DNA of 64,000 nt. Source: Minisyncoccota bacterium. Lineage in GTDB: Bacteria; Patescibacteriota; Minisyncoccia; UBA9983. Below are positions 33,168 to 60,376 of this stretch, in pieces. The notes under the pieces were generated by a model. The model made no database searches, was not told the origin of the DNA, and saw only the letters and a program-made list of their open reading frames with translations. How positions within the stretch are numbered: position 1 is the stretch's first letter; every line of letters starts with the position of its first letter. The stretch spans positions 12,801 through 76,800 of the forward strand of contig JBAZPC010000003.1 in NCBI GenBank assembly GCA_041648395.1, read 5' to 3'. Position numbers and translations under genes: made by a program.

Positions 33168-34991
33168 ATGGAAATTAGAAACATTGCAATTATTGCCCAT
33201 GTTGACCACGGGAAGACCACTTTGACCGACGCTTTGTTGCGCCAGACGGGCGTCGGTGAGGAAGGCGTTTCTATGGATTCAAACGCGCTTGAACTTGAGC
33301 GCGGCATTACTATTTATTCAAAAAACGCCGCGATATTTTATCCCTCGACAAGCTCGGGACGAGTCGCAACGAAAATAAATATCGTTGACACGCCCGGCCA
33401 TGCCGATTTCGGTTCCGAAGTGGAGCGTGTTTTGCGTTCTATTGATTCTGTTTTACTGGTTGTGGACGCGCAGGAAGGACCGATGCCGCAAACCCGTTTC
33501 GTTTTGAAAAAATCATTGGAACTCGGTTTGAAGCCGATTGTGGTAATAAATAAAATTGACAAGCCAGCCGCCGATCCGGCGCGATGCGAGGAGCAAGTGC
33601 TGGAATTATTTCTTGAGCTCGGCGCGACGGACGAGCAGGCGAATTTTCCTGTCGTCTATACAAACGGCCGCGCCGGAATCGCCAAGAAAAAACTGGCGGA
33701 TAAGTCGGACAATCTTGAGCCGCTTTTGGAAACAATTCTTGAACATATTCCTTCTTCTGCTAAGGCAACGGACGGCAAAGTCCTCATGCTGCAGCCGTTT
33801 AATCTCGGTTATGATAATTTTTTGGGGCGGCTCGCCGTGGGCCGTGTCCATGAAGGCGTTGTCATGCCGAATCAAAATATTTTTATTAAAAAGCCGAATG
33901 CCGCGCCCGCAACGCCTGAGCGTAGCGATGGCGGGCGGGGCGAAACGCGCGCAGGAAAACTTTCAAAAATTTTTACTTTCAAAGGGCTTCAGAGAATTGA
34001 GGCAACAAGCGCCAACGCCGGCGACATTGTTTTGGTCGCGGGACTTTCAAATATCGATATCGGCGAGACAATCACGACTGACGAAAACGCGCAGCCGCTT
34101 CCTGCCATCGCCATTGATGAGCCGACCATCGCGCTAACTTTTTTGGCGAACAATTCTCCTTTCGGCGGGCGAGAGGGAAAATTTGTGACATCACGGCAAC
34201 TGCGCGAACGTCTTGAACGCGAGCTTGAGGTTAATGTCGGACTAAAAATTGATTTCAGTGTTGCCGATAATTTTCGGGTTTTGGGCCGAGGCGAATTGCA
34301 TGTCGCGATATTGCTTGAAAATATGCGCCGCGAAGGATTTGAACTTCAGGTTTCCCAGCCGCAGGTAATCATTCGGGAAGAAAACGGCGTTAAGATGGAA
34401 CCGTTTGAAGAAGTAATAGTTGATACGCCAAGCGAATATCAAGGAGTAATAATTGAACGGCTCGGAACGCGCGGTTTTGTTTTGCAAAATATGCGCGCTC
34501 ACGACGCCAACACGCGCCTTATTTTTAGCGGGCCAACCCGGGGGCTTCTTGGTTATCGCAATCAGTTTGTCATTGATACGAGAGGCGAGGGCATTCTTGC
34601 TTCGCGTTTTACGAATTTTTCTCCATACGCGGGAGAAATAAAAAAGCGTCCGACTGGTTCCATGGTTTCCATGATTAAGGGCAAAGCGCTTGGCTACGCT
34701 TTGTGGAATTTGCAGGAGCGGGGCATGCTTTACATCGGCCCGGGCGCGGAAGTGTACGAGGGCCAGGTGATTGGCAACACGGCGAAAGGAGAGGAAATGT
34801 TTGTAAATCCAACAAAAGGAAAACAACTCACCAACATGCGGGCATCCGGTTCGGATGACGCCATAAATCTCGTGCCACCCTTTCTTCTCACTGTTGAGCG
34901 GGGGCTGGAAGTTATGGCGGAAGACGATTATTTGGAAATCACGCCAAAGAGTGTGAGATTGCGGAAACAGCATTTTACGGCAAAGAAATGA
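33168..34991 (+). CDS. typA: translational GTPase TypA/BipA
   Basis: [29 protein letters not shown]. Carries an in-frame GC-rich element ([10 protein letters not shown]). Confidence 0.9.
33903..33940. repeat. GC-rich imperfect-palindromic in-frame element (typA copy, encodes [10 protein letters not shown])
   Basis: The core CCCGCCATCGCTACGCTCAGGCGTTGCGGGCG recurs at 41671-41705 (fmt) and, with 3 substitutions and a 1-nt deletion, at 59365-59408 (mnmA). Confidence 0.8.
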
Positions 34992-36250
34992 ACTCGGAAG
35001 AAAAAATTTTTGATGTCGTTGTCGTGGGCGGCGGGCCGGCCGGAATGATGGCGGCCGGCCGGGCGGGTGAATCGGGAGCCAGCGTCGCGCTCTTGGAAAA
35101 AAATAACGCCTTGGGCAGAAAACTTTTACTGACGGGAAAAGGCAGATGCAATATCACGCGGGCGGAATTTGACCCCAAAGATATTATTAAAGAACTGGGC
35201 AAGGAAGGAGATTTTCTCCGCCACGCTTTGTCTGTTTTTGGGACAAGAGAGACGGTTGATTTTTTTGAGAAAAACGGACTGAAAACAAAAGTTGAAAGAG
35301 GTAAAAGAATTTTTCCCCAAAGCGGCGAGGCCGGCGACGTTTTAAAAATTCTAGCCGCATATTTAAAACAAAATAAAGTGAAAATGATGCTTGGCGCGGA
35401 GGTTAAGGAAATCGCGGTTGATAAAAACAAAAAAAAGATTTCAAAAATAATTTTACAAAATGGCGAAGAAATTTACGCGAAAAATTTTATCATTACGACC
35501 GGCGGGAAGTCCTATCCCGGCACCGGTTCCACTGGCGACGGCTATAGATGGATGGGAAAAATTGGCCACACTATTGTTGAAACGAGGCCGGCTTTGGTTC
35601 CCGTGGCAATCAAGGAAAGTTGGCCGAAAGTGGCGCAAGGGTTGTCTCTAAAAAATGTCGGATTATCCGTTTTTCAAAACGGCAAAAAGAAAGCCAGCCG
35701 TTTTGGGGAACTTCTTTTTACTCATTTCGGGTTAAGCGGCCCCATTGTTTTGGATTTGAGCGGGGAGATCGGCGCGCTTTTGAAAAAGGGCGCCGTTAAA
35801 TTATTTCTTGATTTGAAACCCGCGTTGGATTTTCAAACAATGGATAAAAGATTGCAGAATGATTTTTCCAAATACAGCAATAAATTTTTTAAAAATTGCC
35901 TGGATGATTTGCTCCCCAAAAAAATGATTCCGGTTATTGTTGAATTATCAGGAATTCCTGCGTTGAAGAAAGTTAACGAAATAACAAAACAGGAAAGGCA
36001 GAAATTGGTTAAGTTGTTGAAGGGACTGGAAATGACCGCTGGTTCTCTTTTGGGCATGGAGACGGCGATAATCACATTGGGCGGAGTTTCTTTGAAAGAA
36101 ATAGACGCCAAGACGATGAAATCAAAACTGATTGAAAATTTATTTTTTGCCGGAGAAATAATAAATTTACACGGCCCGACCGGCGGTTATAATTTGCAAA
36201 TTTGCTGGAGCACCGGCCGTCTCGCCGGCCAAACCGCGGGAAAAGTTTAA
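34988..36250 (+). CDS. HI0933/BaiN-family FAD-dependent flavoprotein
   Basis: FDVVVVGGGPAGMMAA dinucleotide fold, then LLLTGKGRCNIT. Confidence 0.75.
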   Translation: MNSEEKIFDVVVVGGGPAGMMAAGRAGESGASVALLEKNNALGRKLLLTGKGRCNITRAEFDPKDIIKELGKEGDFLRHALSVFGTRETVDFFEKNGLKTKVERGKRIFPQSGEAGDVLKILAAYLKQNKVKMMLGAEVKEIAVDKNKKKISKIILQNGEEIYAKNFIITTGGKSYPGTGSTGDGYRWMGKIGHTIVETRPALVPVAIKESWPKVAQGLSLKNVGLSVFQNGKKKASRFGELLFTHFGLSGPIVLDLSGEIGALLKKGAVKLFLDLKPALDFQTMDKRLQNDFSKYSNKFFKNCLDDLLPKKMIPVIVELSGIPALKKVNEITKQERQKLVKLLKGLEMTAGSLLGMETAIITLGGVSLKEIDAKTMKSKLIENLFFAGEIINLHGPTGGYNLQICWSTGRLAGQTAGKV

Positions 36251-36364
36251 ACAAACAACAACTGTTGTCGTTTGGCCTTGGAAATTACACCAAAAAGCAT
36301 CCGCTTGCGCAAACAGGAGAAGAGGTAATTTAATTATTCTTGGATTTGTGATAAAATAGAAAAT

Positions 36365-37063
36365 ATGATAATGAACTTTTTTAGAAAGGATTTAAACCTT
36401 AAAAATAGATGGTGGCACCGACTTTTGTTTGTTGCTTTTATTCTAGCTTTTGTCGTAGTTGTTGGTTTTAGTATTTCAAATATGTCGAACGATGCGCAAT
36501 TGCCGAAATATACAAAAGTCGGCATGTTGTCTGACCGCATGGATACAGAAATTCGCCTCATAGGTAATTTAGTTAAACCTGACGAAAAAATTGCCGTTCA
36601 TGAACATAATTTATACGGTTCATATCTTGGTGAAAGCTTTTATGACGGGAATGGCGGCTGGTTATTGGAACAAGAATATTATTGCTCAAAAAATATTTCT
36701 GACAAAGTTGAAGAGATTTCACGCCAAACTGGTATATATGACTATAGTGGTCCAAAAGATTACACCATCGGCGGCTCATTAGAAGATTTTAAAAAATATT
36801 TACTAAAAGTTAATGCGAATTGTGTGGACGTTAGAAAACTAGACCCTAGCGATCAAATTGGAAATGTAAAAACAGTACTTGGATGGGGACTAGAAGCAGA
36901 TGGAATGGCAGTATGGCAAGAATCGTTAATCAAATCTATTTTTGCAGTTTTGCAAACGCTATTCTTTATAGCTATCGGCTCCCTTGTTCTCTTGGTGCTT
37001 TATTATAAAGTTTTTCTTTACATCGTTTTTGGTCGCTGGAGAAACGATAAAGATAAAAATTGA
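36365..37063 (+). CDS. hypothetical membrane protein (N- and C-terminal TM)
   Basis: Extended -10 TGTGATAAAAT upstream. No motif. Confidence 0.4.
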   Translation: MIMNFFRKDLNLKNRWWHRLLFVAFILAFVVVVGFSISNMSNDAQLPKYTKVGMLSDRMDTEIRLIGNLVKPDEKIAVHEHNLYGSYLGESFYDGNGGWLLEQEYYCSKNISDKVEEISRQTGIYDYSGPKDYTIGGSLEDFKKYLLKVNANCVDVRKLDPSDQIGNVKTVLGWGLEADGMAVWQESLIKSIFAVLQTLFFIAIGSLVLLVLYYKVFLYIVFGRWRNDKDKN

Positions 37064-37145
37064 TTATAAATAACATGCCAAAAAATACAAAAAATTAACA
37101 ATTCTTTTGATAATTTTGTTGGTTTTTTGGTAGTATCTACGCTGG

Positions 37146-37604
37146 TTGAGGTTTGTTGTAAAAATCAAGAAAATTTTGGCAAGGAATATGAACGAAGAAA
37201 AACTACGACAAATTAATTTGGAGAGGATAAAGGTTTATTACGAACTTCTTATCACGGCGGTATGGGAACGATATAAGCTGTTGCCACAAATTAGCGCCCT
37301 CGCCGCAACTTTATTAATCATTGCCACTTTTAACGAGAAAGTTATTTTATTAACAAATCGTGTCCGTTTCTTGATAATCATTTTTATTTTATTAATACCA
37401 ATTAGTATTATTGGCTATCTTGTTGCTTTACATCAAGCAGAAAATCACGCAAAAAAGAAAATAAAAGAAATTACTGGTAAAGAATTACCAACAAAAAAAC
37501 AAAGCAATTTTTTTATAGCTTATCTTCCTTGGTGTATAGCAGGGATTATTTCTATACTCGTTATTTTCGTAGCTTTTTTGGTATGGCAAGGTTTTACTCG
37601 TTAA
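37146..37604 (+). CDS. hypothetical membrane protein (start may be at 37188, MNEEKL)
   Basis: Three predicted TM segments. AAGGA RBS before the 37188 start. Confidence 0.4.
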   Translation: MRFVVKIKKILARNMNEEKLRQINLERIKVYYELLITAVWERYKLLPQISALAATLLIIATFNEKVILLTNRVRFLIIIFILLIPISIIGYLVALHQAENHAKKKIKEITGKELPTKKQSNFFIAYLPWCIAGIISILVIFVAFLVWQGFTR

Positions 37605-37869
37605 ACAATTAAATTTATCCTTTTCGCAACCCATTTCGGCGAGCGAGTAGGTAATTAGGCAAAAGTAATGTTGCATTTTTCAGCGATAGCATAATTTTGC
37701 AACAATATTTATTAATCGACTTGCGATATCAGTTTTTAAAAACTCAAATCAAATTAGTCATTTTCTGCATATGCTGGATTTGACTAATCTTAATATGACC
37801 CACAAACTGACTTACGATGTCGGTTTTTTGTATTTATGGCGGGATTTTGTTATCATTTTATTTAATCTT

Positions 37870-38637
37870 ATGACCCAGGATAAAGTTTATATTTATGGAA
37901 GGCATGCCGTTGCCGAGGCGCTTAAGCGCGCGCCGAAGGCGTTGAGAAAGATATTTCTCTCATCGCCCTCCAAAGGCGGGCAAGCAGGTGCTGACGCAAA
38001 CCTAAAAGAGCTTATCCGCCAATCCGGGGTTCCGACGGTGCCGCTTGCGTCGGGAAGGGAATTGCGGGACATCAGCGGTTCAGAGGCGCATCAAGGCGTT
38101 ATTGGGCTTATATCTTTGAAGGGCTTAATGCGTCAATATGATGAATTTGCCGGCGGGCTTTCGATCAGTCCTAACACGGCGCTTGTTCTTCTTGATGAAA
38201 TTCAGGACCCGCACAATGTGGGAGCGATAATCCGCTCGGCTGCCGCTTTCGGAATTTCCGGTGTCTTAATCCCCGAACACAATCAGGCGCCAATCACTAG
38301 CGCGGTGGTGAAGGTCTCCGCTGGCATGGCATTCAGTATCCCGTTGGTTTCAATCGGCAACATTAATGGCACGGTTCGCGATTTGAAGAAGCGCGGTTTT
38401 TGGGTTCTTGGTCTTGATGGAAACGCCAAGAAATCAATCGCCGATGAATCTTTTGACACCCCGACTTTATTTATTCTCGGCAACGAAGCGAAGGGCATCC
38501 GTCAGAAAACGCGCGAACTCTGCGACGCGCTTGTTTCCATTCCGATAGACCCGAAATGCGAATCGCTGAATGTGGCGGCCTCCGCCGCCGTAGCGCTTTA
38601 CGCATGGAGCGCGAAACATGATATAATTAAGCCATGA
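37870..38637 (+). CDS. rlmB: TrmH/SpoU-family rRNA 2'-O-methyltransferase (RlmB-like)
   Basis: KVYIYGRHAVAEAL, LLDEIQDPHNVGAIIRSAAAFG, LGNEAKGIR, SLNVAASAAVALY. Confidence 0.8.
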   Translation: MTQDKVYIYGRHAVAEALKRAPKALRKIFLSSPSKGGQAGADANLKELIRQSGVPTVPLASGRELRDISGSEAHQGVIGLISLKGLMRQYDEFAGGLSISPNTALVLLDEIQDPHNVGAIIRSAAAFGISGVLIPEHNQAPITSAVVKVSAGMAFSIPLVSIGNINGTVRDLKKRGFWVLGLDGNAKKSIADESFDTPTLFILGNEAKGIRQKTRELCDALVSIPIDPKCESLNVAASAAVALYAWSAKHDIIKP

Positions 38638-39005
38638 ACATAAATATAAAAGCGACAAACATGGAGCTCACGTCGGCCATCAGAGATTTTACGGAGAAAA
38701 AAATCAGCGGACTGGGAAAATTTATCGGTCGCGATGACGACGCAATCAAAGTATTTGTGGAAGTGGGGATAACCACACGCCATCATCATTCTGGAAACAT
38801 TTTCCGCGCCGAGATTCAAATTACCGCTCCGCATATAGAGAAAGGAGTAAGAACAGAGGCGGTTGATGACGATTTGTACACGGCCATTGAAAAGGCGAAA
38901 GACGAGATGAAATTAGAGCTCACGAAAATTAAAGACAGGAAAATTTCTTTGATAAGAAGGGGAGTGAGGGCGTTTAGAAAATTCATTCCGTTTTTAGGAG
39001 AGTGA
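38634..39005 (+). CDS. hpf: ribosome hibernation promoting factor / RaiA family
   Basis: MNINIKATNMELT...IEKAKDEM typical YfiA/HPF fold sequence. Confidence 0.75.
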   Translation: MNINIKATNMELTSAIRDFTEKKISGLGKFIGRDDDAIKVFVEVGITTRHHHSGNIFRAEIQITAPHIEKGVRTEAVDDDLYTAIEKAKDEMKLELTKIKDRKISLIRRGVRAFRKFIPFLGE

Positions 39006-39011
39006 ACTAAA

Positions 39012-39626
39012 ATGAAAAACTTGATAAAAGAATTAATTTCTTCCGGGTATCTCAAGACGTCGCGGCTTATTGAGGCGTTTCAAAAAATAGACAGAAAGGA
39101 CTTTGTGCCGGAAAAAATAAAAGATGAGGCCTACATGAATTCCGCTTTGCTTATCGGCCACGGCCAAACGATTTCCCAGCCGTTGACTGTCGCTTTCATG
39201 CTGGAGTTATTGCAGCCGGAAGAGGGGAATAAAATTATGGAAATCGGCTCCGGTTCGGGATGGCAGACGGCGTTGCTGGCTTCGGCGGTGGGGGATAAAG
39301 GCAAAGTGCTTGCCATAGAACTTATTCCCGAATTGTGCGCTTTTGGAAAGAAAAATGTTTTAAAATACGATTTTATTAAAAAGGGTGTCGTTAAATTTTT
39401 CTGTTTCAATGCCGCAAAAGGCCTGCCGGAAGAAGCGCCTTTTGACAGAATAATTTCCGCCGCCTCGGCGGAAGAAATTCCCAAGGCGTGGAAAGAGCAG
39501 TTAAAAATAGGCGGAAGAATGGTTTTGCCGATAAAAGACGCTGTGTATTTGCTTATCAAAAAAAGCGAAGATAAATTTGAAGAACAAGTTTTCCCTGGTT
39601 TCGCTTTCGTGCCGTTTGTAGTATAA
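39012..39626 (+). CDS. pcm: protein-L-isoaspartate O-methyltransferase
   Basis: IGHGQTISQPLTVAFMLELL, EIGSGSGWQTALLA SAM-binding motif. Confidence 0.85.
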   Translation: MKNLIKELISSGYLKTSRLIEAFQKIDRKDFVPEKIKDEAYMNSALLIGHGQTISQPLTVAFMLELLQPEEGNKIMEIGSGSGWQTALLASAVGDKGKVLAIELIPELCAFGKKNVLKYDFIKKGVVKFFCFNAAKGLPEEAPFDRIISAASAEEIPKAWKEQLKIGGRMVLPIKDAVYLLIKKSEDKFEEQVFPGFAFVPFVV

Positions 39627-39674
39627 TAAAATTATATTATCAGAATAATATTATTAATAATTTAGTATAAATAT

Positions 39675-39933: not shown

Positions 39934-41550
39934 ATGGCAAGCAAAAAATTTGCAAGCAAAAAAATATTTTTGAATGTTGCCGCTATAATTTTTTCTTTGG
40001 GAATCATCAGTGTCGCCAATGCGGTGAACCCTTTTGATATTTCCTATCCCGTGGCGGAACTGGGAAATTGTGGTTCACAGGAAGAGTGTAAGTCGTTTTG
40101 TGACAATCCCGACAATCAGGTCGCGTGCGTTGAATGGGCGCAAGGCAAGGGCTTTGTGACGGAGGGAGAAGTTAAGCGGGTCAAGGACATGAGGAGATTT
40201 GATGATGGAGCAGCGCCGATAGAGGACTTCGGCCCTAATGGGTGCAAAACCCCGCAGGAATGTGACGCGTTCTGTAAGGTTTTAGAAAACTTAAACGAGT
40301 GTTTGAGTTATAGTGTTTCTCATGGGTATATGCCTCAAGAAGAGGCGGACAAGATATTGGCAAAAGTAAACAAAGGAGGCCCCGGCGGATGCAAGGGTCC
40401 GCAGGAATGCGATACATTTTGCCGCAATCCGGAAAATATTGAGACATGTATGAACTTTGCCGTTGAGGATGGGAAAATCAGCAAAGAAGAAGCGGACTTT
40501 ATAATAACCCAGACGAAAGAATTCGGCGCCGGACATGGAAGAAAAGGGGGGGCAGGAAAATCAGGCCAACAACGCGGACCGGCGGAACCGAAAATTGACG
40601 AGCAAAAAGCGCTAAAGGTCTTAGAAGAAAAAGGCGGAGGACCGGGCGGGTGCAAATCAATGGAGGAATGCGGAAATTATTGCGGCACTCCGGAACACGG
40701 AGAAGAGTGCATGAACTTTGCCGTTGAGAACGGATTCATGCCTCCGGAGGAAATGGAAAAAGCAAAAAAAATGATGACGATGGCAGGTCCCGGCGGATGC
40801 AAAGGTCCGCAGGAATGCGACGCATATTGCAGCCAGGAAGGCCATGGCGAAGAGTGTATGAATTTTTCTCTGCAAAACGGATTAGTATCGCCTGAAGAAG
40901 GGGAGAAAATGAAGAGAGAAATGGAAATTGTCAAAAAGCTTCAAGGGGGAGGAATGTCCGGCCCGGGCGGGTGCAAGGGTCCGCAGGAATGCCAGGCTTA
41001 TTGTTCGGACCAATCTCACATGGAGGAGTGCATGAGTTTTGCCACTCAAAACGGAATGATGAACAGAGGCGATGCTAATATGAGAATGCAACAAGTGCAA
41101 GACGCGCAATCAATGATACAAATGGGAGAACAAAGCAGACAAAGATTCATGATGCCTCCTCAAGGGGGCCTGCCCGATGGCAAGGCGGGCGAAATGGGTC
41201 CGCCTCCCGAAGGATTTCGGGGATTTATGTCGCCACCGCCTGGCAGTATGCAACCACCGCCACAAGGAGGAATGCTGCCTCCGGAAGGATACCAAATGCC
41301 GCCTCAGGGAATAATGCCACCAACGACAGGAGGAGGTTTTGTTCCGCCTGGGGGATTTATACCGCCGCCATATGGCAGTATGCAGCCGCCACCGGGAATG
41401 ATGCAGCCAGCGAATATGATGCCACCGGAAGGAATGATACAGCCACCGCCGACAAATATGATACCTCCTCCGCCATCAGAACTGATGCCGTCTACTAATT
41501 TACCTGGGCTTATTCTTAAGCCGTTTCTGGATATTTTTAGGGCTTGGTAG
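39934..41550 (+). CDS. secreted/anchored cysteine-rich repeat protein with Pro/Gln/Met-rich low-complexity tail
   Basis: Signal/TM at the N-terminus. About 7 repeats of ~45 aa: GPGGCKGPQECD(A/T)(F/Y)C...E(E/T)CMNFA..NG. C-terminal PPxG/MxPP tract. Confidence 0.55.
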   Translation: MASKKFASKKIFLNVAAIIFSLGIISVANAVNPFDISYPVAELGNCGSQEECKSFCDNPDNQVACVEWAQGKGFVTEGEVKRVKDMRRFDDGAAPIEDFGPNGCKTPQECDAFCKVLENLNECLSYSVSHGYMPQEEADKILAKVNKGGPGGCKGPQECDTFCRNPENIETCMNFAVEDGKISKEEADFIITQTKEFGAGHGRKGGAGKSGQQRGPAEPKIDEQKALKVLEEKGGGPGGCKSMEECGNYCGTPEHGEECMNFAVENGFMPPEEMEKAKKMMTMAGPGGCKGPQECDAYCSQEGHGEECMNFSLQNGLVSPEEGEKMKREMEIVKKLQGGGMSGPGGCKGPQECQAYCSDQSHMEECMSFATQNGMMNRGDANMRMQQVQDAQSMIQMGEQSRQRFMMPPQGGLPDGKAGEMGPPPEGFRGFMSPPPGSMQPPPQGGMLPPEGYQMPPQGIMPPTTGGGFVPPGGFIPPPYGSMQPPPGMMQPANMMPPEGMIQPPPTNMIPPPPSELMPSTNLPGLILKPFLDIFRAW

Positions 41551-42442
41551 ATCTATTACCCCTCAAAAAATCTTCATAAAGCATTTCGTTTTTGCCTTCC
41601 GGTTTGACGCGTTTGATGGCGAGTTTACCGTCTTCTATTTCTACTTCGGTTATTATGATTCTTTTGCCGTGCCCGCCATCGCTACGCTCAGGCGTTGCGG
41701 GCGGGTTGTTTAGAAAAAAATAAGTCCCAGGCCATGGAGTTAGAGCGCGGACTTTGCGCGCGATGTTTTCCGCCGGCTCGTTCAAATTTATTAAGCTGTC
41801 TTCTTTTGTTATTTTTTTGGTGAAAGTCGCTTGGCTATGATCTTGCTCTTGCGTCTTTATTTTTCCTTCAATCCAATCGGGAATAACTTTCACAAGCAGC
41901 TCACCACCTAACTCCGCCAGTTTTTCTTCCAACTCTTTGTGATATAACTTGGAACTTAGAGCTTGGAGCTTGGAGCTTGCGACAATGTCGCCGTGGTCAA
42001 CTTCCTCGTCTATTTTTATTATCGTCACCCCCGTTTCTTCTTCATCGCTCAAAATAAATGACTGGATAGGCGAGGGACCGCGGAATTTCGGCAGAAGAGA
42101 AGGATGGACATTAAGCGCGCCGTATTTCGGAATGTTTAAAATTTCAAGAGGAATAATTTTGCCGTAATCGGCGACAATGAATAGGTCTGGCTTGAATCTT
42201 GAAACTTGAATCATGAAACTCGAATCTAGTTTATCTGGCTGGTCTAATTTTATGTTCCATGTTTTATGTTCCATGTTCCATAACTTTACCGGTGACGGCT
42301 GGAGTTCCATTTTTCTGCCTTTTGGCTTGTCGGGCGTGGTGACAACCAATTCCGGTACAAAGCCGTTCTGGCATAAAACTTCCAAAACCTTCGCGGCAAA
42401 ATCCCCGGTGCCAAAAAAAACGAATTTAACGCCGTTTTTCAT
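41537..42442 (-). CDS. fmt: methionyl-tRNA formyltransferase
   Basis: VKFVFFGTGDFAAKVLEVL. Formyltransferase core HPSLLPKFRG. Carries a GC-rich in-frame element and heptamer repeat tracts. Confidence 0.8.
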   Translation of the reverse strand: MKNGVKFVFFGTGDFAAKVLEVLCQNGFVPELVVTTPDKPKGRKMELQPSPVKLWNMEHKTWNIKLDQPDKLDSSFMIQVSRFKPDLFIVADYGKIIPLEILNIPKYGALNVHPSLLPKFRGPSPIQSFILSDEEETGVTIIKIDEEVDHGDIVASSKLQALSSKLYHKELEEKLAELGGELLVKVIPDWIEGKIKTQEQDHSQATFTKKITKEDSLINLNEPAENIARKVRALTPWPGTYFFLNNPPATPERSDGGHGKRIIITEVEIEDGKLAIKRVKPEGKNEMLYEDFLRGNRSTKP

Positions 42443-43634: not shown

Positions 43635-45494
43635 TTATAGCAAACTTTCGGGGTCTATGTTTATTTTCCACGCCGGAGACAAGGAAGAAAGAATTTCCCG
43701 CAGTTCTTTTTGCCCGGCGGGCCAGGTGCCCTGCTCCACTTTCAATAAAATATTCCAGATGTATTTATTTTTTATTTTTGGCGTAAAAGAGGAATAACTT
43801 ATCGGCTTCCATTTGGCAAGCCGTTTTTCCAATTCATCTATGTCTTTTTTAAGCTTGGGCTTATTTTTATTTTCTCCCGTAATTTTAATGAGCAAGGAGA
43901 ACGGCGGGTAATCGGATTCCTTTCTAGACTCTATTTCCGCTCTGTAAAACCCCGAAACATTTCCCTTTATTGCCTCTTCAAACACTTTTTGCTCCGGCAT
44001 TTTTGTTTGTATGTAAAATTTTTTCTTTGCCAGCAATTTCAGTTTTATGAGAAGCTGAAAAATTTTTTCATTTATTTTGAAATCAGGCAAGGTGAAAAGG
44101 GGATCAATGGAGGCGACGGCAACAACATCAACCAGCTTGTCCGCCAGCTGGCGGAGATAAGAAAACATTATTTCCGTTCCTATTAAAATTGCCCCGGGTG
44201 TTGCCAAAAAACTATCCGCTATTTCTCTACCTTGTTTTTCCGTTTTTATGGCGTCGCTGTCCATTATAAATATCTTTGCTTGCGGGAATGATTTCTTTAT
44301 TTCCTCGGCTGTTTTTCTTATACCTGCGCCATATTCTTCAAGTTTCCAGCTTTGGCAGGAAGGACATTTTTCAGGTGTAATAGTTTCTTTCAGGCATTTA
44401 TGGCAAAGCCACACTCCGCCAGCTGGCGGATTTCCTTCTTTTTTATGAAGGACAAGCGGCGATTCGCATTTTTCGCATAAAACAGGACGGGAACAGTCTT
44501 TGCACACCGTGATGGGCGAATACCCCCGCCGGTTGGAGAATAAAATTATTTTTTCTTTTTTTTCTACGGCCTCGCCGATTTTCTTTTTCAATTCGTCTTC
44601 GCCGATTACCGCCTGCTCAATTTCCGAAAAAATTCTCCGACCGGCCGTGAAGTTATTTCTATGGCAAGTTTCCGCTCTCAAAACGACATCTCCGAAAATA
44701 AGGCGAACCCCTCTTTTTTGAGCGATGAATTCCGCCACTTTTCTCACGTCAATGTACGGTCTAGTTTGAAGCTTGTAAAAAGGCGAGCTTTCTTTGTCTA
44801 TTATCAAAGTACCGATGTCTTCTCTAGGTAAAGAAAGAAACGACCTAGTGGTGGCTATAAGAAGCGGATGTTCTTCTTTTAAGGCGAAAGACCATAACTC
44901 TTTTATTTTTTTCTTTTTTAATCCGAAGTGCATTACTATGGCGTACCTTTCTATACCCTTTTGCAGTTCAGGAAAAATATTTTCCATATCGGCCGCCGTC
45001 GGCAGGCAGAGAAAAATGGAACGATTCCTAGCAAATTCTTCACGGGTGATTCTTTTGTAATATTGGATTCTTTCTTCTCTGTCTCCCTGAAAAAGAACGG
45101 TCTCGTGATATTTATTCGCGCCGGCGTCTGATTCCGTTTGGCTAGAATTTGACGCCGCCGGGTCTTCCAAAATTATTTGAGGCACAAGATCTTTAATGAC
45201 TGACCCGACCGGCGCTAGAAAATAATTTGATATCCCCTTGCACGCTTCCATAAATTTCGGCAAAAGAAATTTTTCTGCCTTTACCGTTTTTATTGATTTG
45301 AGAGAAAAATCCGCCCGGCGCAAATCCGTTTTCGCCGTTCTCAATTCCTGCGAGGAGACGACTATGGCCGGAATTATTTTTTTGCGCACCGGCACTGTGA
45401 CCAAAGCGCCCGCTTCAATGTTTTTTGAAGTGAAATAAGAGAGGTTTTCCCTAAAAACTCCTTTAGTAATCGGCACGACACTTAGAATCCTCAT
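43635..45494 (-). CDS. priA: primosomal protein N' (PriA helicase)
   Basis: Helicase motifs (GVTGSGKT-like, DEEH), Cys4-Cys4 zinc-binding region CKDCSRP...CEKC...CHKC...CPSC. PPAGG palindrome between the Cys pairs. Confidence 0.85.
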   Translation of the reverse strand: MRILSVVPITKGVFRENLSYFTSKNIEAGALVTVPVRKKIIPAIVVSSQELRTAKTDLRRADFSLKSIKTVKAEKFLLPKFMEACKGISNYFLAPVGSVIKDLVPQIILEDPAASNSSQTESDAGANKYHETVLFQGDREERIQYYKRITREEFARNRSIFLCLPTAADMENIFPELQKGIERYAIVMHFGLKKKKIKELWSFALKEEHPLLIATTRSFLSLPREDIGTLIIDKESSPFYKLQTRPYIDVRKVAEFIAQKRGVRLIFGDVVLRAETCHRNNFTAGRRIFSEIEQAVIGEDELKKKIGEAVEKKEKIILFSNRRGYSPITVCKDCSRPVLCEKCESPLVLHKKEGNPPAGGVWLCHKCLKETITPEKCPSCQSWKLEEYGAGIRKTAEEIKKSFPQAKIFIMDSDAIKTEKQGREIADSFLATPGAILIGTEIMFSYLRQLADKLVDVVAVASIDPLFTLPDFKINEKIFQLLIKLKLLAKKKFYIQTKMPEQKVFEEAIKGNVSGFYRAEIESRKESDYPPFSLLIKITGENKNKPKLKKDIDELEKRLAKWKPISYSSFTPKIKNKYIWNILLKVEQGTWPAGQKELREILSSLSPAWKINIDPESLL

Positions 45495-53131: not shown

Positions 53132-53211
53132 GCAAGATTTTATCCCACCAAGGCAAGATTTTATCCCACCAAGGCAAGATTTTATCCCACCAAGGCAAGA
53201 TTTTATTCTGC
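53132..53211. repeat. intergenic 21-nt tandem repeat GCAAGATTTTATCCCACCAAG, 3 perfect units plus 1 partial
   Basis: Units at 53132-53152, 53153-53173, 53174-53194, partial 53195-53211. Lies in the divergent promoter region between 52865(-) and 53286(+). Confidence 0.75.
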
Positions 53212-53834: not shown

Positions 53835-53838
53835 AAAA

Positions 53839-56352
53839 ATGAATCCGTACAGCCATAAAAAAATTGAAAAGAAGTGGCAAAAGTATTGGGAGAAAAATAA
53901 ACTTGACCAGGCGAAAGATTTTTCCAAAAGGCCTAAATATTATTGTCTCGTAGAATTTCCTTATCCGTCGGGAGACGGCTTGCATGTAGGCCACACTCGA
54001 AGCTATACTGCCATGGATATAATTGCCCGCAAAAGAAGAATGCAGGGCTACAACGTGCTTTATCCCATGGGCTGGGACGCTTTCGGTTTGCCGACGGAAA
54101 ATTACGCTATTAAAAAAGGAGTTCACCCAAGCGTTATTACAAAAAAGAATACAGATAATTTTAGAAGGCAATTAAAATCATTAGCTTTTTCTTTTGATTG
54201 GAGCAGGGAAATAAATACTACCGACCCGAAATATTATAAATGGACGCAGTGGATATTTTTGCAGCTTTTTAAGAAGGGCTTGGCGTACAAGCATAAAATG
54301 CCGATAAACTGGTGCTTGTCTTGCAAAGTCGGTTTGGCGAACGAGGAGGTGGTGGACGGCAAGTGCGAGCGTTGCGGGGGGCAGACGGAAAAAAGGGAAA
54401 AAGAGCAATGGATGTTGGCCATAACGAAATACGCCGACCGGCTAGATAAGGATTTGGATCCGCCAGCTGGCGGATTAGATTATCTGGAAAAAATAAAAAT
54501 CCAGCAGAGAAATTGGATAGGGAAATCAGAAGGAGCGGAGATTGAATTCAAGATTCAAGATTCAAGTTTCAAGTTTCAAGTTTTTACCACACGCGTTGAT
54601 ACTATTTTTGGTTGCACTTATGTAGTTGTTGCGCCCGAGCATGAGATAATCTCAAAACTAAAATCGCAAATATTAAATCTGAGCGAAGTTGAAAAATATA
54701 TTAATGAAGCGAAAAGAAAATCAGACCTGCAAAGGACGGAATTGCAAAAAGAAAAAACTGGCGTTGAATTGAAGGGCATGAAAGCCATTAATCCTTTCAA
54801 TAATGAAGAAGTGTCGGTGTTTGTGGCGGACTATGTTTTGGGGCATTATGGCACAGGCGCGGTAATGGCCGTCCCCGCGCACGACGAACGCGATTTTGAA
54901 TTCGCGAAGAAATATGGATTACCGGTGCGGCAATCGGTCGCCAGAAATTCTAATTTCTTAAGGACGGACGACGAGGGAAATCCTACGAAATCAGAAATTT
55001 CTGGCTCCCTTAGTGAGTGTTTTGTTGAAGATGGCGTCCTTGCTGATTCCGGCCAGTTTTCCGGCCTGACTTCTGCCGAGGCGTGCGGGGAGATGGTGAA
55101 ATGGCTGGAGGAAAAGAAGTTGGGGAAAAAAGTGGTTAAATTTCACTTGCGCGACTGGGTTTTCTCCCGCCAGCATTATTGGGGCGAGCCGATACCGATA
55201 GTGAATTGTCCAAAATGCGGCCTAGTACCGGTGCCGGAAAAAGATTTGCCGGTAAAATTGCCTGATGTAAAAAAATACGAACCGACTGACACGGGCGAAT
55301 CGCCGTTGGCGGCTATTTTAAAATGGGTGAATGTAAAATGCCCGAAGTGCAAAGGTCCGGCAAAAAGGGAAACCGACACCATGCCAAACTGGGCGGGATC
55401 GTCTTGGTATTATCTCGCATATTTAATGCTCGAAAATAAAAAATCAAATCTCAAAAATCAAAAATATGTTTGGGATAAGAAAAAATTAAAATATTGGATG
55501 CCCGTTGATTGGTACAACGGCGGAATGGAGCACACAACTTTGCATTTATTATATTCACGATTTTGGAATAAATTTTTATTTGACATCAAGGCGGCGCCGA
55601 CAAGCGAGCCGTATAAAAAAAGAACTTCGCATGGAATGATACTTGGACCGGACGGAGAGAAGATGTCCAAGTCGCGCGGCAATGTGATAAATCCGGACGA
55701 TATGGTTTCCGCTTATGGCGCAGACGCTTACCGTTTGTACCAAATGTTTATGGGGCCGTTTGATCAAGCGATACCATGGGACCCGAAAGGCATTGAAGGC
55801 ACGAGTAGGTTTTTGGGAAGAGTGTGGAAGTTGTTATCAGCCGTCAGCTATCAGTCGTCAACCAAAGAGCAAAAGCTGAAAGCTGAAAGCGGAAAGCTGA
55901 AGACTTTATTGCACAAAACCATCAAAAAAGTTTCTGAAGATATTGAAAGCATGCGGTTCAACACAGCTGTCAGTTCACTCATGATTTTATCAAACGAGAT
56001 GGAGAAACAGGAAGAAATACTGACTACTGATTACCTAATACTGGTTACTCTTTTAAGTCCTTTTGCTCCTCATATCTGCGAAGAAATTTGGAGCAAGCTT
56101 GGTAACAAAAAATCAATCTTTTTGGAAAAATGGCCGAAGTTTGATTCCCAAAAAATAAGAGAAGATAGTTTTGAATTGGTGATGCAAGTGAACGGCAAAG
56201 TGAGAGACAGGTTTGAGGCGCCGACGGATATTTCCGAAAATGACGCCATGTTATTGACATTGAAACGCGAAAATGTTAAAAAGTGGATAGGCGATAAACA
56301 AGTCAAAAAAGTCATATTTATCCAAAATAAGCTGATAAATTTAATAGCATAA
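53839..56352 (+). CDS. leuS: leucyl-tRNA synthetase
   Basis: HVGHTRSYT (HIGH), KMSKS. Editing domain. Carries the 18-bp palindrome and two heptamer tracts. Confidence 0.9.
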   Translation: MNPYSHKKIEKKWQKYWEKNKLDQAKDFSKRPKYYCLVEFPYPSGDGLHVGHTRSYTAMDIIARKRRMQGYNVLYPMGWDAFGLPTENYAIKKGVHPSVITKKNTDNFRRQLKSLAFSFDWSREINTTDPKYYKWTQWIFLQLFKKGLAYKHKMPINWCLSCKVGLANEEVVDGKCERCGGQTEKREKEQWMLAITKYADRLDKDLDPPAGGLDYLEKIKIQQRNWIGKSEGAEIEFKIQDSSFKFQVFTTRVDTIFGCTYVVVAPEHEIISKLKSQILNLSEVEKYINEAKRKSDLQRTELQKEKTGVELKGMKAINPFNNEEVSVFVADYVLGHYGTGAVMAVPAHDERDFEFAKKYGLPVRQSVARNSNFLRTDDEGNPTKSEISGSLSECFVEDGVLADSGQFSGLTSAEACGEMVKWLEEKKLGKKVVKFHLRDWVFSRQHYWGEPIPIVNCPKCGLVPVPEKDLPVKLPDVKKYEPTDTGESPLAAILKWVNVKCPKCKGPAKRETDTMPNWAGSSWYYLAYLMLENKKSNLKNQKYVWDKKKLKYWMPVDWYNGGMEHTTLHLLYSRFWNKFLFDIKAAPTSEPYKKRTSHGMILGPDGEKMSKSRGNVINPDDMVSAYGADAYRLYQMFMGPFDQAIPWDPKGIEGTSRFLGRVWKLLSAVSYQSSTKEQKLKAESGKLKTLLHKTIKKVSEDIESMRFNTAVSSLMILSNEMEKQEEILTTDYLILVTLLSPFAPHICEEIWSKLGNKKSIFLEKWPKFDSQKIREDSFELVMQVNGKVRDRFEAPTDISENDAMLLTLKRENVKKWIGDKQVKKVIFIQNKLINLIA
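54458..54475. repeat. 18-bp perfect palindrome ATCCGCCAGCTGGCGGAT inside leuS (encodes DPPAGG)
   Basis: Self-complementary. Related copies at 11468-11483, 15289-15304, 44415-44430, 62793-62809. Confidence 0.85.
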
Positions 56353-56368
56353 GAAAATAAACAATATA

Positions 56369-57403
56369 ATGGTTATTCTTTCGTTCAACCCAAAAGACGT
56401 TAATAAGAATTTAACCTCTGTTTTAAACGACAGAGCGAGAGACATAATTCTCCAGCGTTACGGCATGGCCAAGTCGCCGGAAAGAAAAACCCTTGAGGCT
56501 ATCGGCCAGGTTTACGGCATCACCCGCGAGAGGGTGAGGCAGCTTGAGAATTTCGCCCTTAATTCCATCAGACAGAGCAAAAATTTTTCAACCCAAGAAG
56601 ACGCGTTGGCGGAGCTGAACGATTATATCTCAAAAAAAGGAGGCCTTTTGTCAGAACAAGATATTCTTAATGAGTTATCAGATAATGGAGACCAGTATAC
56701 TAAAAATAATATTTACTTTTTGCTTGTTCTCGGAGACGATTTCAAAAAAATAAAAGAAGACGATTATTTCAACCATCGCTGGACGACTAACGAAGGCAGA
56801 GCGCAAAAAATCCACGAAGTTTTAGACAAGCTCCATAAAAAAGTCAAAGAAGATATTTTATTGGCAGAGAAGGAAATAATTTCCATCACGCAAGATTATG
56901 CGAAAGATGTTATGGGAGAAAAGACAAAAGACGACATTGTCCGTTCCTGGCTCAATATGTCAAAAGTGGTTGATAAAAATGTTTTAGGAGAATGGGGAAA
57001 TGTAAAATCGTCAAACATTCATCCGCGAGGTGTGCGCGATCTCGCCTTTACGGTTTTGAGAAAAAACGGATCGCCCATGCACTTCAGTGAAATAACAAAA
57101 GCGATATCCGAAATTTTTCCTAAAAAAGCGCACCCTGCCACCGTTCACAATGAACTCATCAAAGATTCGCGTTTCGTTCTTGTCGGACGCGGCATGTATG
57201 CCCTGAAAGAATGGGGATACGCTTCAGGCACGGTTCGCCAGATAATCAAAAGTATTCTTAAGTCATCCGGACCCCTCACAAAAGAGGAAATTATAAAGAA
57301 AGTCCTGAAAGAACGATACGTGAAAGAAAACACCATTTTGGTAAATTTGCAAAACAGCAAATATTTTAAGAGAAATAAAAACGGCGCTTATTCAGCTGTT
57401 TAA
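56369..57403 (+). CDS. sigma-70 region-4-like HTH domain protein (344 aa)
   Basis: LNDRARDIILQRYGM...TLEAIGQVYGITRERVRQLEN resembles sigma70 r4. Remainder unknown. Confidence 0.5.
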   Translation: MVILSFNPKDVNKNLTSVLNDRARDIILQRYGMAKSPERKTLEAIGQVYGITRERVRQLENFALNSIRQSKNFSTQEDALAELNDYISKKGGLLSEQDILNELSDNGDQYTKNNIYFLLVLGDDFKKIKEDDYFNHRWTTNEGRAQKIHEVLDKLHKKVKEDILLAEKEIISITQDYAKDVMGEKTKDDIVRSWLNMSKVVDKNVLGEWGNVKSSNIHPRGVRDLAFTVLRKNGSPMHFSEITKAISEIFPKKAHPATVHNELIKDSRFVLVGRGMYALKEWGYASGTVRQIIKSILKSSGPLTKEEIIKKVLKERYVKENTILVNLQNSKYFKRNKNGAYSAV

Positions 57404-57405
57404 TT

Positions 57406-58578
57406 ATGCCAGCTTTTATTCAGGATATTTTTATTTTAACCAAGGGTTTTTTATTTGAGAATTGGTATTTCTTTTTACCGCTTTTTCTAACCCTTGTTTT
57501 TTGGGATTTTTGGGTAAATTATATTAGGACCAAATTTATTTATAATCTCAAATGGACCACTTTGGAAGTGAAATTGCCGAGGGAAATAACAAAGAGTCCG
57601 CGGGCGATGGAGATTGTCTTAAATATGTTCCATCAAACAAAGGATGGAAATTTTTGGGAAAAATATTGGTTAGGATTTTTGAGGCCGTGGTTCAGCTTGG
57701 AAATAGTCGGCATCAACGGAGAAATTCATTTTTTTATTTGCACTCAATCGTTTTTTAGAAATCTTATTGAGGCGCAGATTTACGCCCAATATCCGGAAGT
57801 GGAAATCGTGGAAGTTGAAGATTATTCCAAAATGGCTTTTACGGAAGGCCTTGGCACAGAATGGGGATGTTTTGGGACGGAGTTTGAACTTATAGCGGAA
57901 GATGCTTATCCCATAAGAACTTATGTTGATTACGGCCTTCATGAGACATTGACTAAGGAAGAGCAAAAGAGCGATCCTATGACCTCCTTTATTGAGCTTC
58001 TCGGCTCTTTGAAAGAAGGGGAGAATATTTGGTTTCAAATTTTAATACGAGCGACAAAAAAGGAATGGAGAGATGAAGGCAAGGCGCTGATTGACGAAAT
58101 AATGGAGAGAGGTAAAAAACTTGCTGAAGGGGAACAGGCGAAAAAATTATCTTCTGGCGAGATAGAAATAATAAAAGCAATTGAGCGCGACGTCTCTAAG
58201 CTTGGCTTTGACGTGGGGATAAGGGCGCTTTATCTTGCCAGAACAGATAAATTTAATGCCATAAATATTTCATCAATAATAGGTTCAATGAAGCAATATA
58301 ATGCCGTGAATTTAAACGGCTTTAAGCCGGCGCGCGCAACTTCTTTGGACTATTGGTGGAGATTGAAAAAGTGGCGGGAGCCAAGAATGAAAATAAAAAT
58401 GATGGATGCCTATAGAAAGCGCTCGTATTTTTATGTGCCTTATTCGCGCAAGCCGTTTGTTTTAAACACCGAAGAGTTGGCGACGATTTTTCACTTCCCG
58501 GGCAGGGTGGCAGAAACCCCGACCTTCGGCAGGATTGAAGCGAAGAAGGGCGAACCGCCGGCGGGCTTGCCCGTATAG
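57406..58578 (+). CDS. membrane protein paralogous to the N-terminal domain of the 25123..27540 ATPase
   Basis: Shared blocks FSLEIVGINGEIHFF / FALEIGLPYFGDEIVFY, and FVLNTEELATIFHFPG / ILLNTAELTSLFHFPS. Confidence 0.5.
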   Translation: MPAFIQDIFILTKGFLFENWYFFLPLFLTLVFWDFWVNYIRTKFIYNLKWTTLEVKLPREITKSPRAMEIVLNMFHQTKDGNFWEKYWLGFLRPWFSLEIVGINGEIHFFICTQSFFRNLIEAQIYAQYPEVEIVEVEDYSKMAFTEGLGTEWGCFGTEFELIAEDAYPIRTYVDYGLHETLTKEEQKSDPMTSFIELLGSLKEGENIWFQILIRATKKEWRDEGKALIDEIMERGKKLAEGEQAKKLSSGEIEIIKAIERDVSKLGFDVGIRALYLARTDKFNAINISSIIGSMKQYNAVNLNGFKPARATSLDYWWRLKKWREPRMKIKMMDAYRKRSYFYVPYSRKPFVLNTEELATIFHFPGRVAETPTFGRIEAKKGEPPAGLPV

Positions 58579-58602
58579 GATAGGGATTGCCTGTTTAAAA
58601 TA

Positions 58603-59253
58603 ATGTTTTCAATTTCAAGGATACAAACAATTATTGCTGTTCTTTTCCTCTGCGCTCTGATTTTGCCGGGTCTGTTTTATCGTTTGTTTTTTAGGGAAGA
58701 TATCCAAATATTGGCTCCTCAAATAAGAATTACTATTCCTGAGGGTTATACCACAAAAGACATCGCGGAACGCTTGAAAAATTTCAGAAATTTTAACAAA
58801 GAAGAATTTTTAAAAATTGCCGAAGATAAAGAAGGATATTTATTCCCAGACACTTATTTTTTTACCAGCAAGGAAATGCCGGAAGAAATTATAGAAAAGA
58901 TGGAAAATAATTTTAAAGTGAAAGCCGGCGATGTTCAAAAAGATATTCTCATAATGGCGTCCATCATAGAAAAAGAAGCGCGCAACAAAGAAGATAGGAG
59001 AATTATCTCCGGTATTTTATGGAAACGATTGAAAATAAATATGCCCTTGCAGGTGGATGTCAGTTTGTACACTTATGACAATAAAGGTCTTCCTCCAATG
59101 CCGATTTGCAATCCCGGGCTGGATGCCATAGACGCGGCAAAAAACCCTGTTGATTCAAAATATTGGTATTATCTTTCCGACAAAAAGGGTGTGACCCACT
59201 TTGCCAGAACTTTTGAAGAGCATAAGCGGAATAGGGCAAAATATGGCATCTAA
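58603..59253 (+). CDS. mltG: endolytic murein transglycosylase MltG (YceG-like)
   Basis: N-terminal TM. YceG motifs GYLFPDTYFF, E...MASIIEKEA. Confidence 0.75.
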   Translation: MFSISRIQTIIAVLFLCALILPGLFYRLFFREDIQILAPQIRITIPEGYTTKDIAERLKNFRNFNKEEFLKIAEDKEGYLFPDTYFFTSKEMPEEIIEKMENNFKVKAGDVQKDILIMASIIEKEARNKEDRRIISGILWKRLKINMPLQVDVSLYTYDNKGLPPMPICNPGLDAIDAAKNPVDSKYWYYLSDKKGVTHFARTFEEHKRNRAKYGI

Positions 59254-60376
59254 AAAACTGAAAGTTTTTGTGGGGATGAGCGGGGGCGTGGACTCTTCTG
59301 TGGCGGCTTTGCTTTTACAAAAACAAAATTATGACTTGGTTGGCTGTTTTATAAAGGGCTGGTACCCGCCCGCCTTCGCAAGCTCAGGCGTTGCGGGCGG
59401 GCCCGCTGGTTTTTATTGTTCCTGGAAAGAAGACAGGCGTGACGTCATGCGCGTGTGCGCCAAGCTCGGCATTCCATTCATCACCATTGATGCGGAAAAA
59501 GAGTATAAGCGCGACGTGGTTGATTACATGCTGCGCGAATACAAGGCGGGACGGACGCCGAATCCCGACGTAATGTGCAATAAAAACATCAAGTTTGGAA
59601 TTTTTTTAAAAAAAGCGCTGGCGATGGGGGCGGATTACATAGCCACAGGGCATTATGTGAAAATTGAAAATTGTAAATTGAAAATTGCTCATGATTTAAA
59701 CAAAGACCAATCTTATTTTCTTTGGACGCTTACGCAAAAGCAATTAAAATACTGCCTTTTTCCGATTGGCGATTTATCAAAACCGCAGGTAAGGGAATTG
59801 GCGAGAAAAAATAATTTGCCCACGGCGGAAAAAGACGAAAGCATGGGTGTTTGTTTTATCGGCGAATTCCCGATGGCGGATTTTCTTAAGAAATATATAA
59901 AAACAAAAAAGGGGAAAGTGGTTACAACAGAGGGGAAGATTATCGGCGAACATGAAGGCGTGATGTTTTATACTATCGGTCAACGTCATGGTTGGGGCGG
60001 GCTTGCCCGCCGAAGCTTTAGCGAAGGCGGGGTGCCGTATTATATCGTGGCAAAAGACATTAAGAAAAATTTAATTATAGTAGCGGATAAAGCGAGCGAG
60101 GAAAATTTTTACAAAAAAGAAGTGGAAATAGAAAATGTAAATTGGATTTCCGGGAAAACGCCACTTGGAAACTTAGTTTCCAAGTTATACAAAGCGCGTA
60201 TTAGATACCGCCAGCCGTTGCAAAATTGCCGCATTAAAATTACAAAAGATGAGAAAAATCAGCGATCGCATAATTATCGAATCTTTTTTACTAGGCCACA
60301 AAGGGCGGTAACCTCGGGTCAGTCGTTGGTTTTGTATGACGGGCAAACAATGCTCGGCGGAGGGATTATAAAATAA
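59243..60376 (+). CDS. mnmA: tRNA-specific 2-thiouridylase MnmA
   Basis: VFVGMSGGVDSSVAA PP-loop. Catalytic Cys context. Carries a GC-rich element and a heptamer tract. Confidence 0.85.
   Translation: MASKKLKVFVGMSGGVDSSVAALLLQKQNYDLVGCFIKGWYPPAFASSGVAGGPAGFYCSWKEDRRDVMRVCAKLGIPFITIDAEKEYKRDVVDYMLREYKAGRTPNPDVMCNKNIKFGIFLKKALAMGADYIATGHYVKIENCKLKIAHDLNKDQSYFLWTLTQKQLKYCLFPIGDLSKPQVRELARKNNLPTAEKDESMGVCFIGEFPMADFLKKYIKTKKGKVVTTEGKIIGEHEGVMFYTIGQRHGWGGLARRSFSEGGVPYYIVAKDIKKNLIIVADKASEENFYKKEVEIENVNWISGKTPLGNLVSKLYKARIRYRQPLQNCRIKITKDEKNQRSHNYRIFFTRPQRAVTSGQSLVLYDGQTMLGGGIIK

Follow-up and report, generated by a model that had tools for sequence, protein, structure and literature searches.

How does one and the same G+C-rich palindrome come to be translated within three unrelated bacterial genes? 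The question is raised by a stretch of 64,000 nucleotides (the window) from a Minisyncoccota bacterium (assembly GCA_041648395.1, contig JBAZPC010000003.1, positions 12,801 to 76,800 of the forward strand), in which a first-pass annotation, made from the sequence alone, had noted a repeated element in typA, fmt and mnmA and proposed a selfish palindromic repeat that is inserted into coding regions and read through. Here, we found empty sites at all three positions in related genomes, which support this proposal. We consider it likely that the three sequences are copies of a 36-39-bp hairpin mini-element with a stem of G and C only, which moves as DNA and is found widely among Patescibacteria, the candidate phyla radiation (CPR). 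The host genes of the window match exact database proteins from a metagenome-assembled genome (MAG) of Candidatus Paceibacterota, among them its TypA (P0001).

In the window, the 32-mer GCCCGCAACGCCTGAGCGTAGCGATGGCGGGC has two exact occurrences, at 33905-33936 (+) and 41671-41702 (-), where zero were expected by chance (100 dinucleotide shuffles), so that the identical 32-nt core described at first stands. The former lies in typA/bipA (33168..34991, +; E 3.6e-177 to BipA structures) and the latter in fmt (41537..42442, -; E 4e-47 to Met-tRNA formyltransferase structures), and both ORFs (open reading frames) confirm that the two copies have the same orientation and frame relative to coding and encode an identical 10-residue peptide. 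The third copy, at 59368-59398 on the minus strand, lies in mnmA on the plus strand (59243..60376; E 2.9e-90 to MnmA structures; exact match to P0121) and is, as had been noted, reversed relative to coding yet read through, as P-P-A-F-A-S-S-G-V-A-G-G. It is a short-loop variant that was correctly described as 1 nt shorter, with one base deleted from the 32-mer, and that carries two substitutions instead of the three first counted. The arms GCCCGC/GCGGGC are likewise present in the element, but they understate its palindrome: when all copies are compared, the consensus is CCC-GCCCGC...GCGGGC-GGG, with G+C arms of 9 bp, the core being flanked by CCC on the left and by G-[G/C/A]-G on the right. 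The folding proposed as a check yields a hairpin for both DNA and RNA (DNA -15 to -16.6 kcal/mol, z -2.5 to -3.3). Each of the two main variants can be read through in five of its six frames. The element has about 75-80% G+C, the window 42%.

Are these segments insertions or native parts of the proteins? Orthologue comparison, also proposed at the outset, revealed the expected indel in each of the three genes. For typA, two relatives (L074 and L075; 84-85% DNA and 87-88% protein identity) are without exactly 39 nt, which correspond in the window to the block 33900..33938 (+), composed of GCCGC, the 32-mer and GG and encoding 13 residues. The closest TypA orthologues have KKPN-G/K-ETR in place of the insert-bearing segment, of the 120 TypA proteins nearest to it, 119 are without the insert, and BipA structures show a 13-residue gap at its position. 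For fmt, an orthologue of 79% DNA identity (L160/P0242) is without exactly 39 nt, matching the block 41669..41707 (-; on the coding strand AACCC, the 32-mer and AC), which again encodes 13 residues, and no insert was found among the 119 other Fmt homologues listed. For mnmA, the nearest relative (L076/P0122, 82% DNA identity) is without exactly 36 nt, the block 59366..59401 (-), which is antisense to the gene and encodes PPAFASSGVAGG; MnmA structures do not have the inserted segment either. Alignment ambiguity leaves +/-2 nt at each edge of these blocks. All three copies are true in-frame insertions that add 12-13 residues. The two alternatives raised with the original proposal, a native conserved protein motif and an assembly or chimera artefact, retain hardly any probability: the segments are not a native motif because each of the three positions is cleanly empty in close orthologues, in agreement with the BipA and MnmA structures, and they are not an assembly error because independent assemblies from many laboratories carry the element, more than 70 in number and with orthologous mnmA sites from separate samples.

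As to the proteins, AlphaFold models were built from orthologue alignments. That of TypA has a predicted local distance difference test (pLDDT) score below 50 at residues 246-257 (12 residues), between strands 237-241 and 260-264 of domain II, and in that of MnmA, residues 45-55 are coil with pLDDT <50, the mean of that model being 86. In these models, the TypA and MnmA inserts are low-confidence loops in otherwise confident domains. Both genes hold a second G+C-rich insert as well. The one in typA (~33340-33365) is a 21-nt block encoding PSTSSGR and absent from L074 and L075, and the one in mnmA (~59990-60020) encodes GLARRSFSEGG, the second segment with pLDDT <50 (residues 251-262). In four TypA orthologues (P0032, P0034, P0039 and P0047), the loop that holds the window's typA insert contains ASPAGG.

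Is the element confined to this genome? A scan of species-representative genomes with the pattern GCCCGCAACGCCTGAGC-N6-12-GGCGGGC (24 specified bases) yielded 76 further copies in 73 loci, i.e. 79 copies in 74 sequences with the three of the window. Nearly all loci are from MAGs of many Patescibacteria lineages or CPR classes, including Saccharibacteria and Woese-, Berkel-, Vogel-, Moran-, Doudna-, Buchanan-, Komeili-, Gottesman-, Nomura-, Levyi- and Taylorbacteria. Other labels, all unverified, are attached to ~16 loci (Gammaproteobacteria, two Verrucomicrobiae, one Margulisiibacteriota and one Bdellovibrionales). Two variants dominate, 29 copies with the loop GAGCGTAGCGATG and 18 with the loop GAGCTTGCGATG. 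The MAGs of the ~13 loci with the unverified label Gammaproteobacteria have 37-44% G+C, and a private variant, GTAGCGAGGCGGGC, occurs at L003 1452-1482 and L061 328-362 in a MAG of 62% G+C labelled, again without verification, Verrucomicrobiae.

At least 16 of the scan copies, or 19 with those of the window, lie within ORFs with Pfam domains, some of them in C-terminal tails. The hosts are PolX, the NAD-dependent ligase LigA (two copies), PrmC, ArgRS, FemAB, MurB, topoisomerase I, DnaX, UvrD, LeuRS, a CAP-domain protein, IlvC, ScpB, a methyltransferase, a Wzy-like protein and a second MnmA match with the element at a different site. Because domains are found on both sides of the insert, the copies in LigA, LeuRS, topoisomerase I and UvrD are in frame. 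The suggestion that the hosts are specifically translation-associated does not survive this survey, in which genes for replication, repair, the cell wall and amino-acid synthesis appear as hosts too; the element is found in housekeeping genes at large, with no special place for translation. That the element stays open in both orientations, another point of the first-pass annotation, is true but weak as a hallmark of selfish DNA, because G+C-rich DNA rarely holds stop codons. Moreover, genic copies favour one orientation: the sense strand is the GCCCGCAACGCC strand in 17 of the 19 verified copies, nine of which share one 10-residue reading and eight another. This 17:2 bias has p 1e-5 against a 2-in-5 open-frame expectation, but only p 0.024 when one of the reverse frames is taken to do just as little harm. 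Two of the hosts have further peculiarities: a UvrD-like helicase (L049 86-3487, -) contains both an intein and the hairpin, and the two hairpin copies of an NAD-dependent ligase (L015 4050-6587, +) are ~1.1 kb apart.

Does the element move? Copies in unrelated genes and in lineages far apart are almost identical. Pairs of copies within one genome share the variable part in 26 of 33 cases, versus 6.2 expected and no more than 17 in any of 5000 shuffles, and a family profile (nhmmer) detected diverged copies beside intact ones. At mnmA, the same 36-nt insert is found at the identical site in three further loci (L077, L078 and L079). In a neighbour-joining tree, the filled mnmA alleles (P0121 of the window, P0124, P0125 and P0161) are interleaved with empty ones and are polyphyletic, the sisters of the window's allele and of P0125 being empty and P0161 standing far off beside an empty allele. 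These four genes are 66-84% identical in DNA (divergence up to 33%). Only one of the 36 sites of the insert varies among them, compared with a mean of 15.2 and a minimum of 8 variable sites in other 36-nt windows of the same genes (n=733). Either the insert has come to this site recently and more than once, or its nucleotide sequence is under strong constraint.

The latter would be expected if the hairpin were kept for host or transcript use, be it as a protein-binding DNA site, as an mRNA hairpin for stability or translation pausing, or as a useful protein loop, and hence by selection and not by mobility. The near-invariant mnmA insert fits this explanation, as do the conservation of the consensus across CPR and the 17:2 orientation bias among genic copies, and a comparable argument has been made for the yeast GC42 hairpin, in which substitutions are concentrated in loops (PMC4478555). 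However, the insert is missing from nearly all of the closest TypA proteins, from all other listed Fmt homologues and from the nearest mnmA relative. The hosts and the positions within them are unrelated, both orientations and four different frames are in use, diverged copies exist, the genome-specific variants are better explained by amplification, and the orientation bias is weaker (p 0.024) once one reverse frame is taken as harmless. We regard selection for a host function as unlikely.

Mobility at the DNA level is the reading that we prefer. The element, which is best filed as coding-region palindromic selfish DNA, also shows an unexpected tie to a small nuclease gene. We found cassettes of one layout in the window, in L010 (as two units in tandem), in L034 (with three fragments), in L060 and, with the element reversed, in L045. 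A 5' tRNA fragment with a hairpin comes first, the ATG of an ORF of ~80 aa lies no more than ~20 nt further on, and an intact tRNA that matches the fragment in type stands last. Among 10 GIY-YIG ORFs from the genome loci and the window, 6 show this combination of tRNA fragment and hairpin. The cassette ORFs encode the catalytic domain of GIY-YIG nucleases (PF01541, E 1e-12 to 1e-16) with invariant Tyr, Arg, His and Glu columns in their alignment, and the solved structures closest to them are single-domain UPF0213 proteins and the structure-specific nuclease SLX1. The cassette of the window (31086-31454, -) is located 2.4 kb upstream of the typA insert. As read from the letters, it begins with a tRNA-Gln 5' fragment (31413..31454, -) that is interrupted by another GC hairpin, CCTGGCCGGGCAGGC (31428-31442), and continues with a single-domain GIY-YIG nuclease gene of 82 aa (31163..31411, -; Pfam PF01541, E 5e-14) and, directly downstream, an intact tRNA-Gln(TTG) (31086..31158, -; ARAGORN and Rfam).

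Is this arrangement a general one? A metagenome search by GIY-YIG similarity alone, with a four-sequence alignment, returned 80 loci, in which a tRNA lies directly downstream of 59 of 86 ORFs and 19 isoacceptor types are represented. A G+C-rich hairpin is present <=110 nt upstream of 52 of 83 ORFs versus 13 of 258 control windows (5%; p 2e-27), at a median of 21 nt from the GIY-YIG ATG, and a match to the family profile lies near 51 of 86 ORFs, many with E 1e-9 to 1e-12. A copy of the tRNA 5' end is split around the insert in 39 of 57 cases (insert 27-74 nt, median 42 nt, 71% G+C), with splits concentrated at tRNA positions 8-9 and 16-22. Because some fragments differ from the resident tRNA (L119, L120), the fragment is carried along by the cassette. 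In full length, the hairpin of the cassettes reads CCCGCCCGCAACGCCTGAGCAAGC-N4-6-GCTTGCGATGGCGGGCGGG; the window's 32-mer and the shorter variant are short-loop forms of it. A tRNA intron or insert was considered and rejected: deletion of the element restores a tRNA (ARAGORN) only in L029, a probable pseudo-tRNA beside an intact copy, and the other copies are 5' tRNA fragments. As the apparent tRNA D-loop copies are such fragments, RNA-level excision is not needed.

The window also holds a sister-family hairpin, CCTGCCCGCAATGCTACGCATAGCGTTGCAGGCGGG, at 61582..61617 (-), in frame in ORF 60937-62676 and encoding KPARNATHSVAGGN (nhmmer with the family profile, E 0.36), near-identical relatives of which stand at the GIY-YIG cassettes of L156, L148 and L152. 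A weak match, partial or decayed, lies in frame at 6157..6184 (-) in ORF 4383-7109 (nhmmer E 0.32). In L060, ~150 nt upstream of the GIY-YIG ORF at 5217-5489 (-), an older tRNA-Thr fragment with the hairpins CCCGCCCGCCAAGACTTCGCTTTGGCGAGTCGGGCGGG and GGCCTGCCTACCAACACCTACGGTGTAGCGATGGTGGGGGC suggests stacked rounds of insertion. Some GIY-YIG genes without tRNA context (L092, L137, L139, L141, L144, L147 and L157) have the half-site GCCCGCCCGCCTCGCCTGAGCGAG directly upstream, apparently at the end of another ORF.

Based on this association, we propose that the hairpin is probably mobilised through break repair linked to GIY-YIG nucleases, and that the genic copies would be solo offshoots of the GIY-YIG/tRNA cassettes. 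DNA breaks, made by the SLX1/UPF0213-like nuclease or arising otherwise, would be repaired by copying the hairpin from another locus via microhomology of short C/G runs, a process that would leave no target duplication. CCC lies beside the insertion point in the empty mnmA site, and GG in the typA and fmt sites. The only copies to survive would be frame-keeping insertions in tolerant loops with harmless peptides, and in the cassettes the hairpin may break a ~25-nt direct repeat and shield the nuclease gene from deletion in this way. A more far-reaching version, offered tentatively and with more doubt than confidence, is that the hairpin and the 80-aa GIY-YIG protein form a minimal mobile system of CPR, in which the structure-specific nuclease would act on or install the hairpin; the system as such would colonise tRNA genes via the conserved D-arm and shed solo hairpins that remodel loops of essential proteins throughout the radiation.

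Several observations weigh against a mobile hairpin driven by this nuclease. The case for mobility is drawn from comparative patterns only, and the near-invariance at mnmA could equally stem from selection on the sequence itself. The three empty-site comparisons showed no consistent target-site duplication, just an ambiguity of 1-3 nt, and the flanks and end composition across the copies gave no clear target motif. No single cleavage site emerges, because the hairpins enter the tRNA fragments at several positions, and these varying entry positions together with the lacking target motif argue against a simple site-specific cut. None of the window's three copies adjoins a GIY-YIG gene, and the sole cassette of the window bears a different hairpin. 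Finally, since the GIY-YIG set was seeded from genes beside the element, it samples one nuclease subfamily.

Could another enzyme move the hairpin, with the GIY-YIG association being incidental? The element might resemble repetitive extragenic palindromic (REP) sequences and be moved as single-stranded DNA by a Y1 transposase, either a REP-associated tyrosine transposase (RAYT) or one of the insertion sequence (IS) type IS200/IS605. Its size and imperfect palindrome are as in REPs, and the absence of a target duplication is as for IS200/IS605. A preference for one strand would also fit: the forward strand is on the strand of G-rich skew in 55 of 79 copies and in 47 of the 59 loci with strong skew. 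Against this, the three copies of the window lie in a single skew domain yet point in both directions, and a replication-strand bias was rejected as an explanation, being inseparable from coding-strand composition and contradicted by these three copies. The element is flanked by neither a conserved target of 4-5 nt nor a GTAG/CGTC head, and at least 19 copies lie within genes where REPs are extragenic. The sole recurrently adjacent gene is the GIY-YIG gene, although no search aimed at RAYT or Y1 genes was made. Movement by a Y1 transposase is accordingly improbable in our judgement, somewhat more so than a host function. Other candidates were dismissed as well. Insertion into the loops of pre-existing hairpins is not borne out by flank complementarity (6 runs of >=5, versus 2.4 expected and a shuffle maximum of 9), and a phage or plasmid vector is not indicated, no matches being found in viral contigs or plasmids. 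A known RNA family was rejected in the absence of an Rfam match at gathering score, the hits (E 0.35-0.52) being at chance level. The copies are dispersed singly, without the array layout of clustered regularly interspaced short palindromic repeats (CRISPR), and no IS was seen near the element in a search that was not exhaustive.

Does the element belong to a known class? We found no description of it in CPR in the literature searched, which included its sequence and peptides as text; subscription papers were thinly covered, and an earlier description is possible. Mobile GC clusters of yeast mitochondria include an optional in-frame cluster in var1 and are subject to break-linked conversion. 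Such clusters, e.g. GC42, are G+C-rich hairpins of 30-50 bp with a constrained stem, and share with the CPR element the short G+C hairpin in an A+T-rich genome, the strain-specific variants and the presence or absence at homologous sites (PMC4478555). In contrast, GC42 duplicates an AG target and lies mostly between genes, whereas the CPR element lacks a duplication and has many genic copies; its host is bacterial, not organellar, and the same account describes no recurrent adjacency to a nuclease gene (PMC4478555). The Rickettsia palindromic elements (RPEs) are ~150 bp long (family unit ~100-150 bp), occur in Rickettsia only and lie in frame in unrelated genes, according to a summary of Ogata et al. 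2000 (PMC10969869). They resemble the CPR element as palindromic repeats in frame in housekeeping genes that are unrelated to one another, in a genome that is reduced; translation adds a peptide segment that the fold tolerates, and no transposase is known. The CPR element, of 36-39 bp, CPR-wide and with a Paceibacterota host, is set apart from these larger, Rickettsia-confined repeats by size and host, and differs further in being a G+C island in a genome of 42% G+C and in its tie to GIY-YIG/tRNA cassettes.

REPs and bacterial interspersed mosaic elements (BIMEs) with RAYTs are also imperfect palindromes of 20-40 bp with many copies per genome (PMC3733652), but REPs are extragenic with a GTAG or CGTC head (PMC3733652), whereas the CPR element has 19 genic copies and CCC/GGG ends. 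[quoted passage not shown] T4 SegB, a free-standing GIY-YIG homing endonuclease encoded in a phage tRNA gene cluster (PMC2330249), shows the same placement of a GIY-YIG gene among or beside tRNA genes, a pattern expected of break-and-repair spread, to which the tandem units of L010 and L034 would correspond. The CPR proteins, in contrast, have ~80 aa, consist of the catalytic domain only with no DNA-binding domain, and are closest to UPF0213 and SLX1, and the account of SegB consulted (PMC2330249) offers no counterpart to the duplicated 5' tRNA fragment with GC hairpin. The mnmA site, which holds the insert in certain lineages but is empty in others closely related to them, recalls DNA linked to homing endonucleases, although here the nuclease is linked to the family at tRNA cassettes and not to the window's three copies.

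If the element is indeed mobile, selfish DNA would be writing loops of 12-13 residues into essential proteins of the free-living bacteria with the most reduced genomes, which is relevant to annotating and modelling CPR proteins, with their many unexplained inserts. To our knowledge, no mechanism has been established for coding-region palindromes since the RPEs of Rickettsia were described. The abundant single-domain GIY-YIG nuclease, which has a hairpin of the same family at the border of its gene, is a candidate suspect, and the association may hint at a role for UPF0213 GIY-YIG proteins. Furthermore, the CPR-conserved sequence could serve as a lineage marker, and the element probably gives rise to mis-called tRNA genes and to breaks in assemblies.

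The window contains further repeats. The mini-palindrome TCCGCCAGCTGGCGGA lies inside six ORFs (11467-11482, 15289-15304, 23226-23241, 44140-44155, 44415-44430 and 62790-62810) and reads mostly as NPPAGG, once as SAGWRI and once as LRQLAD. The family CCTGCCCGAYGGCAAGGCGGG occurs in three ORFs and three frames, at 2761-2785, 7013-7037 and 41167-41191 (KPARQQGGS, CPTARRAA and LPDGKAG). ORF 39934-41550 is internally repetitive at 40230-41471, with five Cys-rich units of at least 49 nt (GPGGCKGPQECD..C) and a PPG/MQPP run, and it also hosts one CCTGCCCGATGGCAAGGCGGG element. Between genes, a perfect tandem repeat of ~3.5 copies of the 21-nt unit GCAAGATTTTATCCCACCAAG lies at 53132-53206, the palindromic ATTAGTCATTTTCTGCATATGCTGGATTTGACTAA is a conserved motif at 9116-9150, 18212-18246 and 37753-37787, and AACTTGCAAAA...GGTAGGAAT, also conserved and promoter-like in appearance, is found at 18259-18302, 18851-18894 and 60375-60418. 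The tRNA at 18907-18980 (+) has the anticodon CTA and is labelled Pyl by ARAGORN; in Rfam it has the score of an ordinary tRNA (65.6 bits), and it could be amber-reading.

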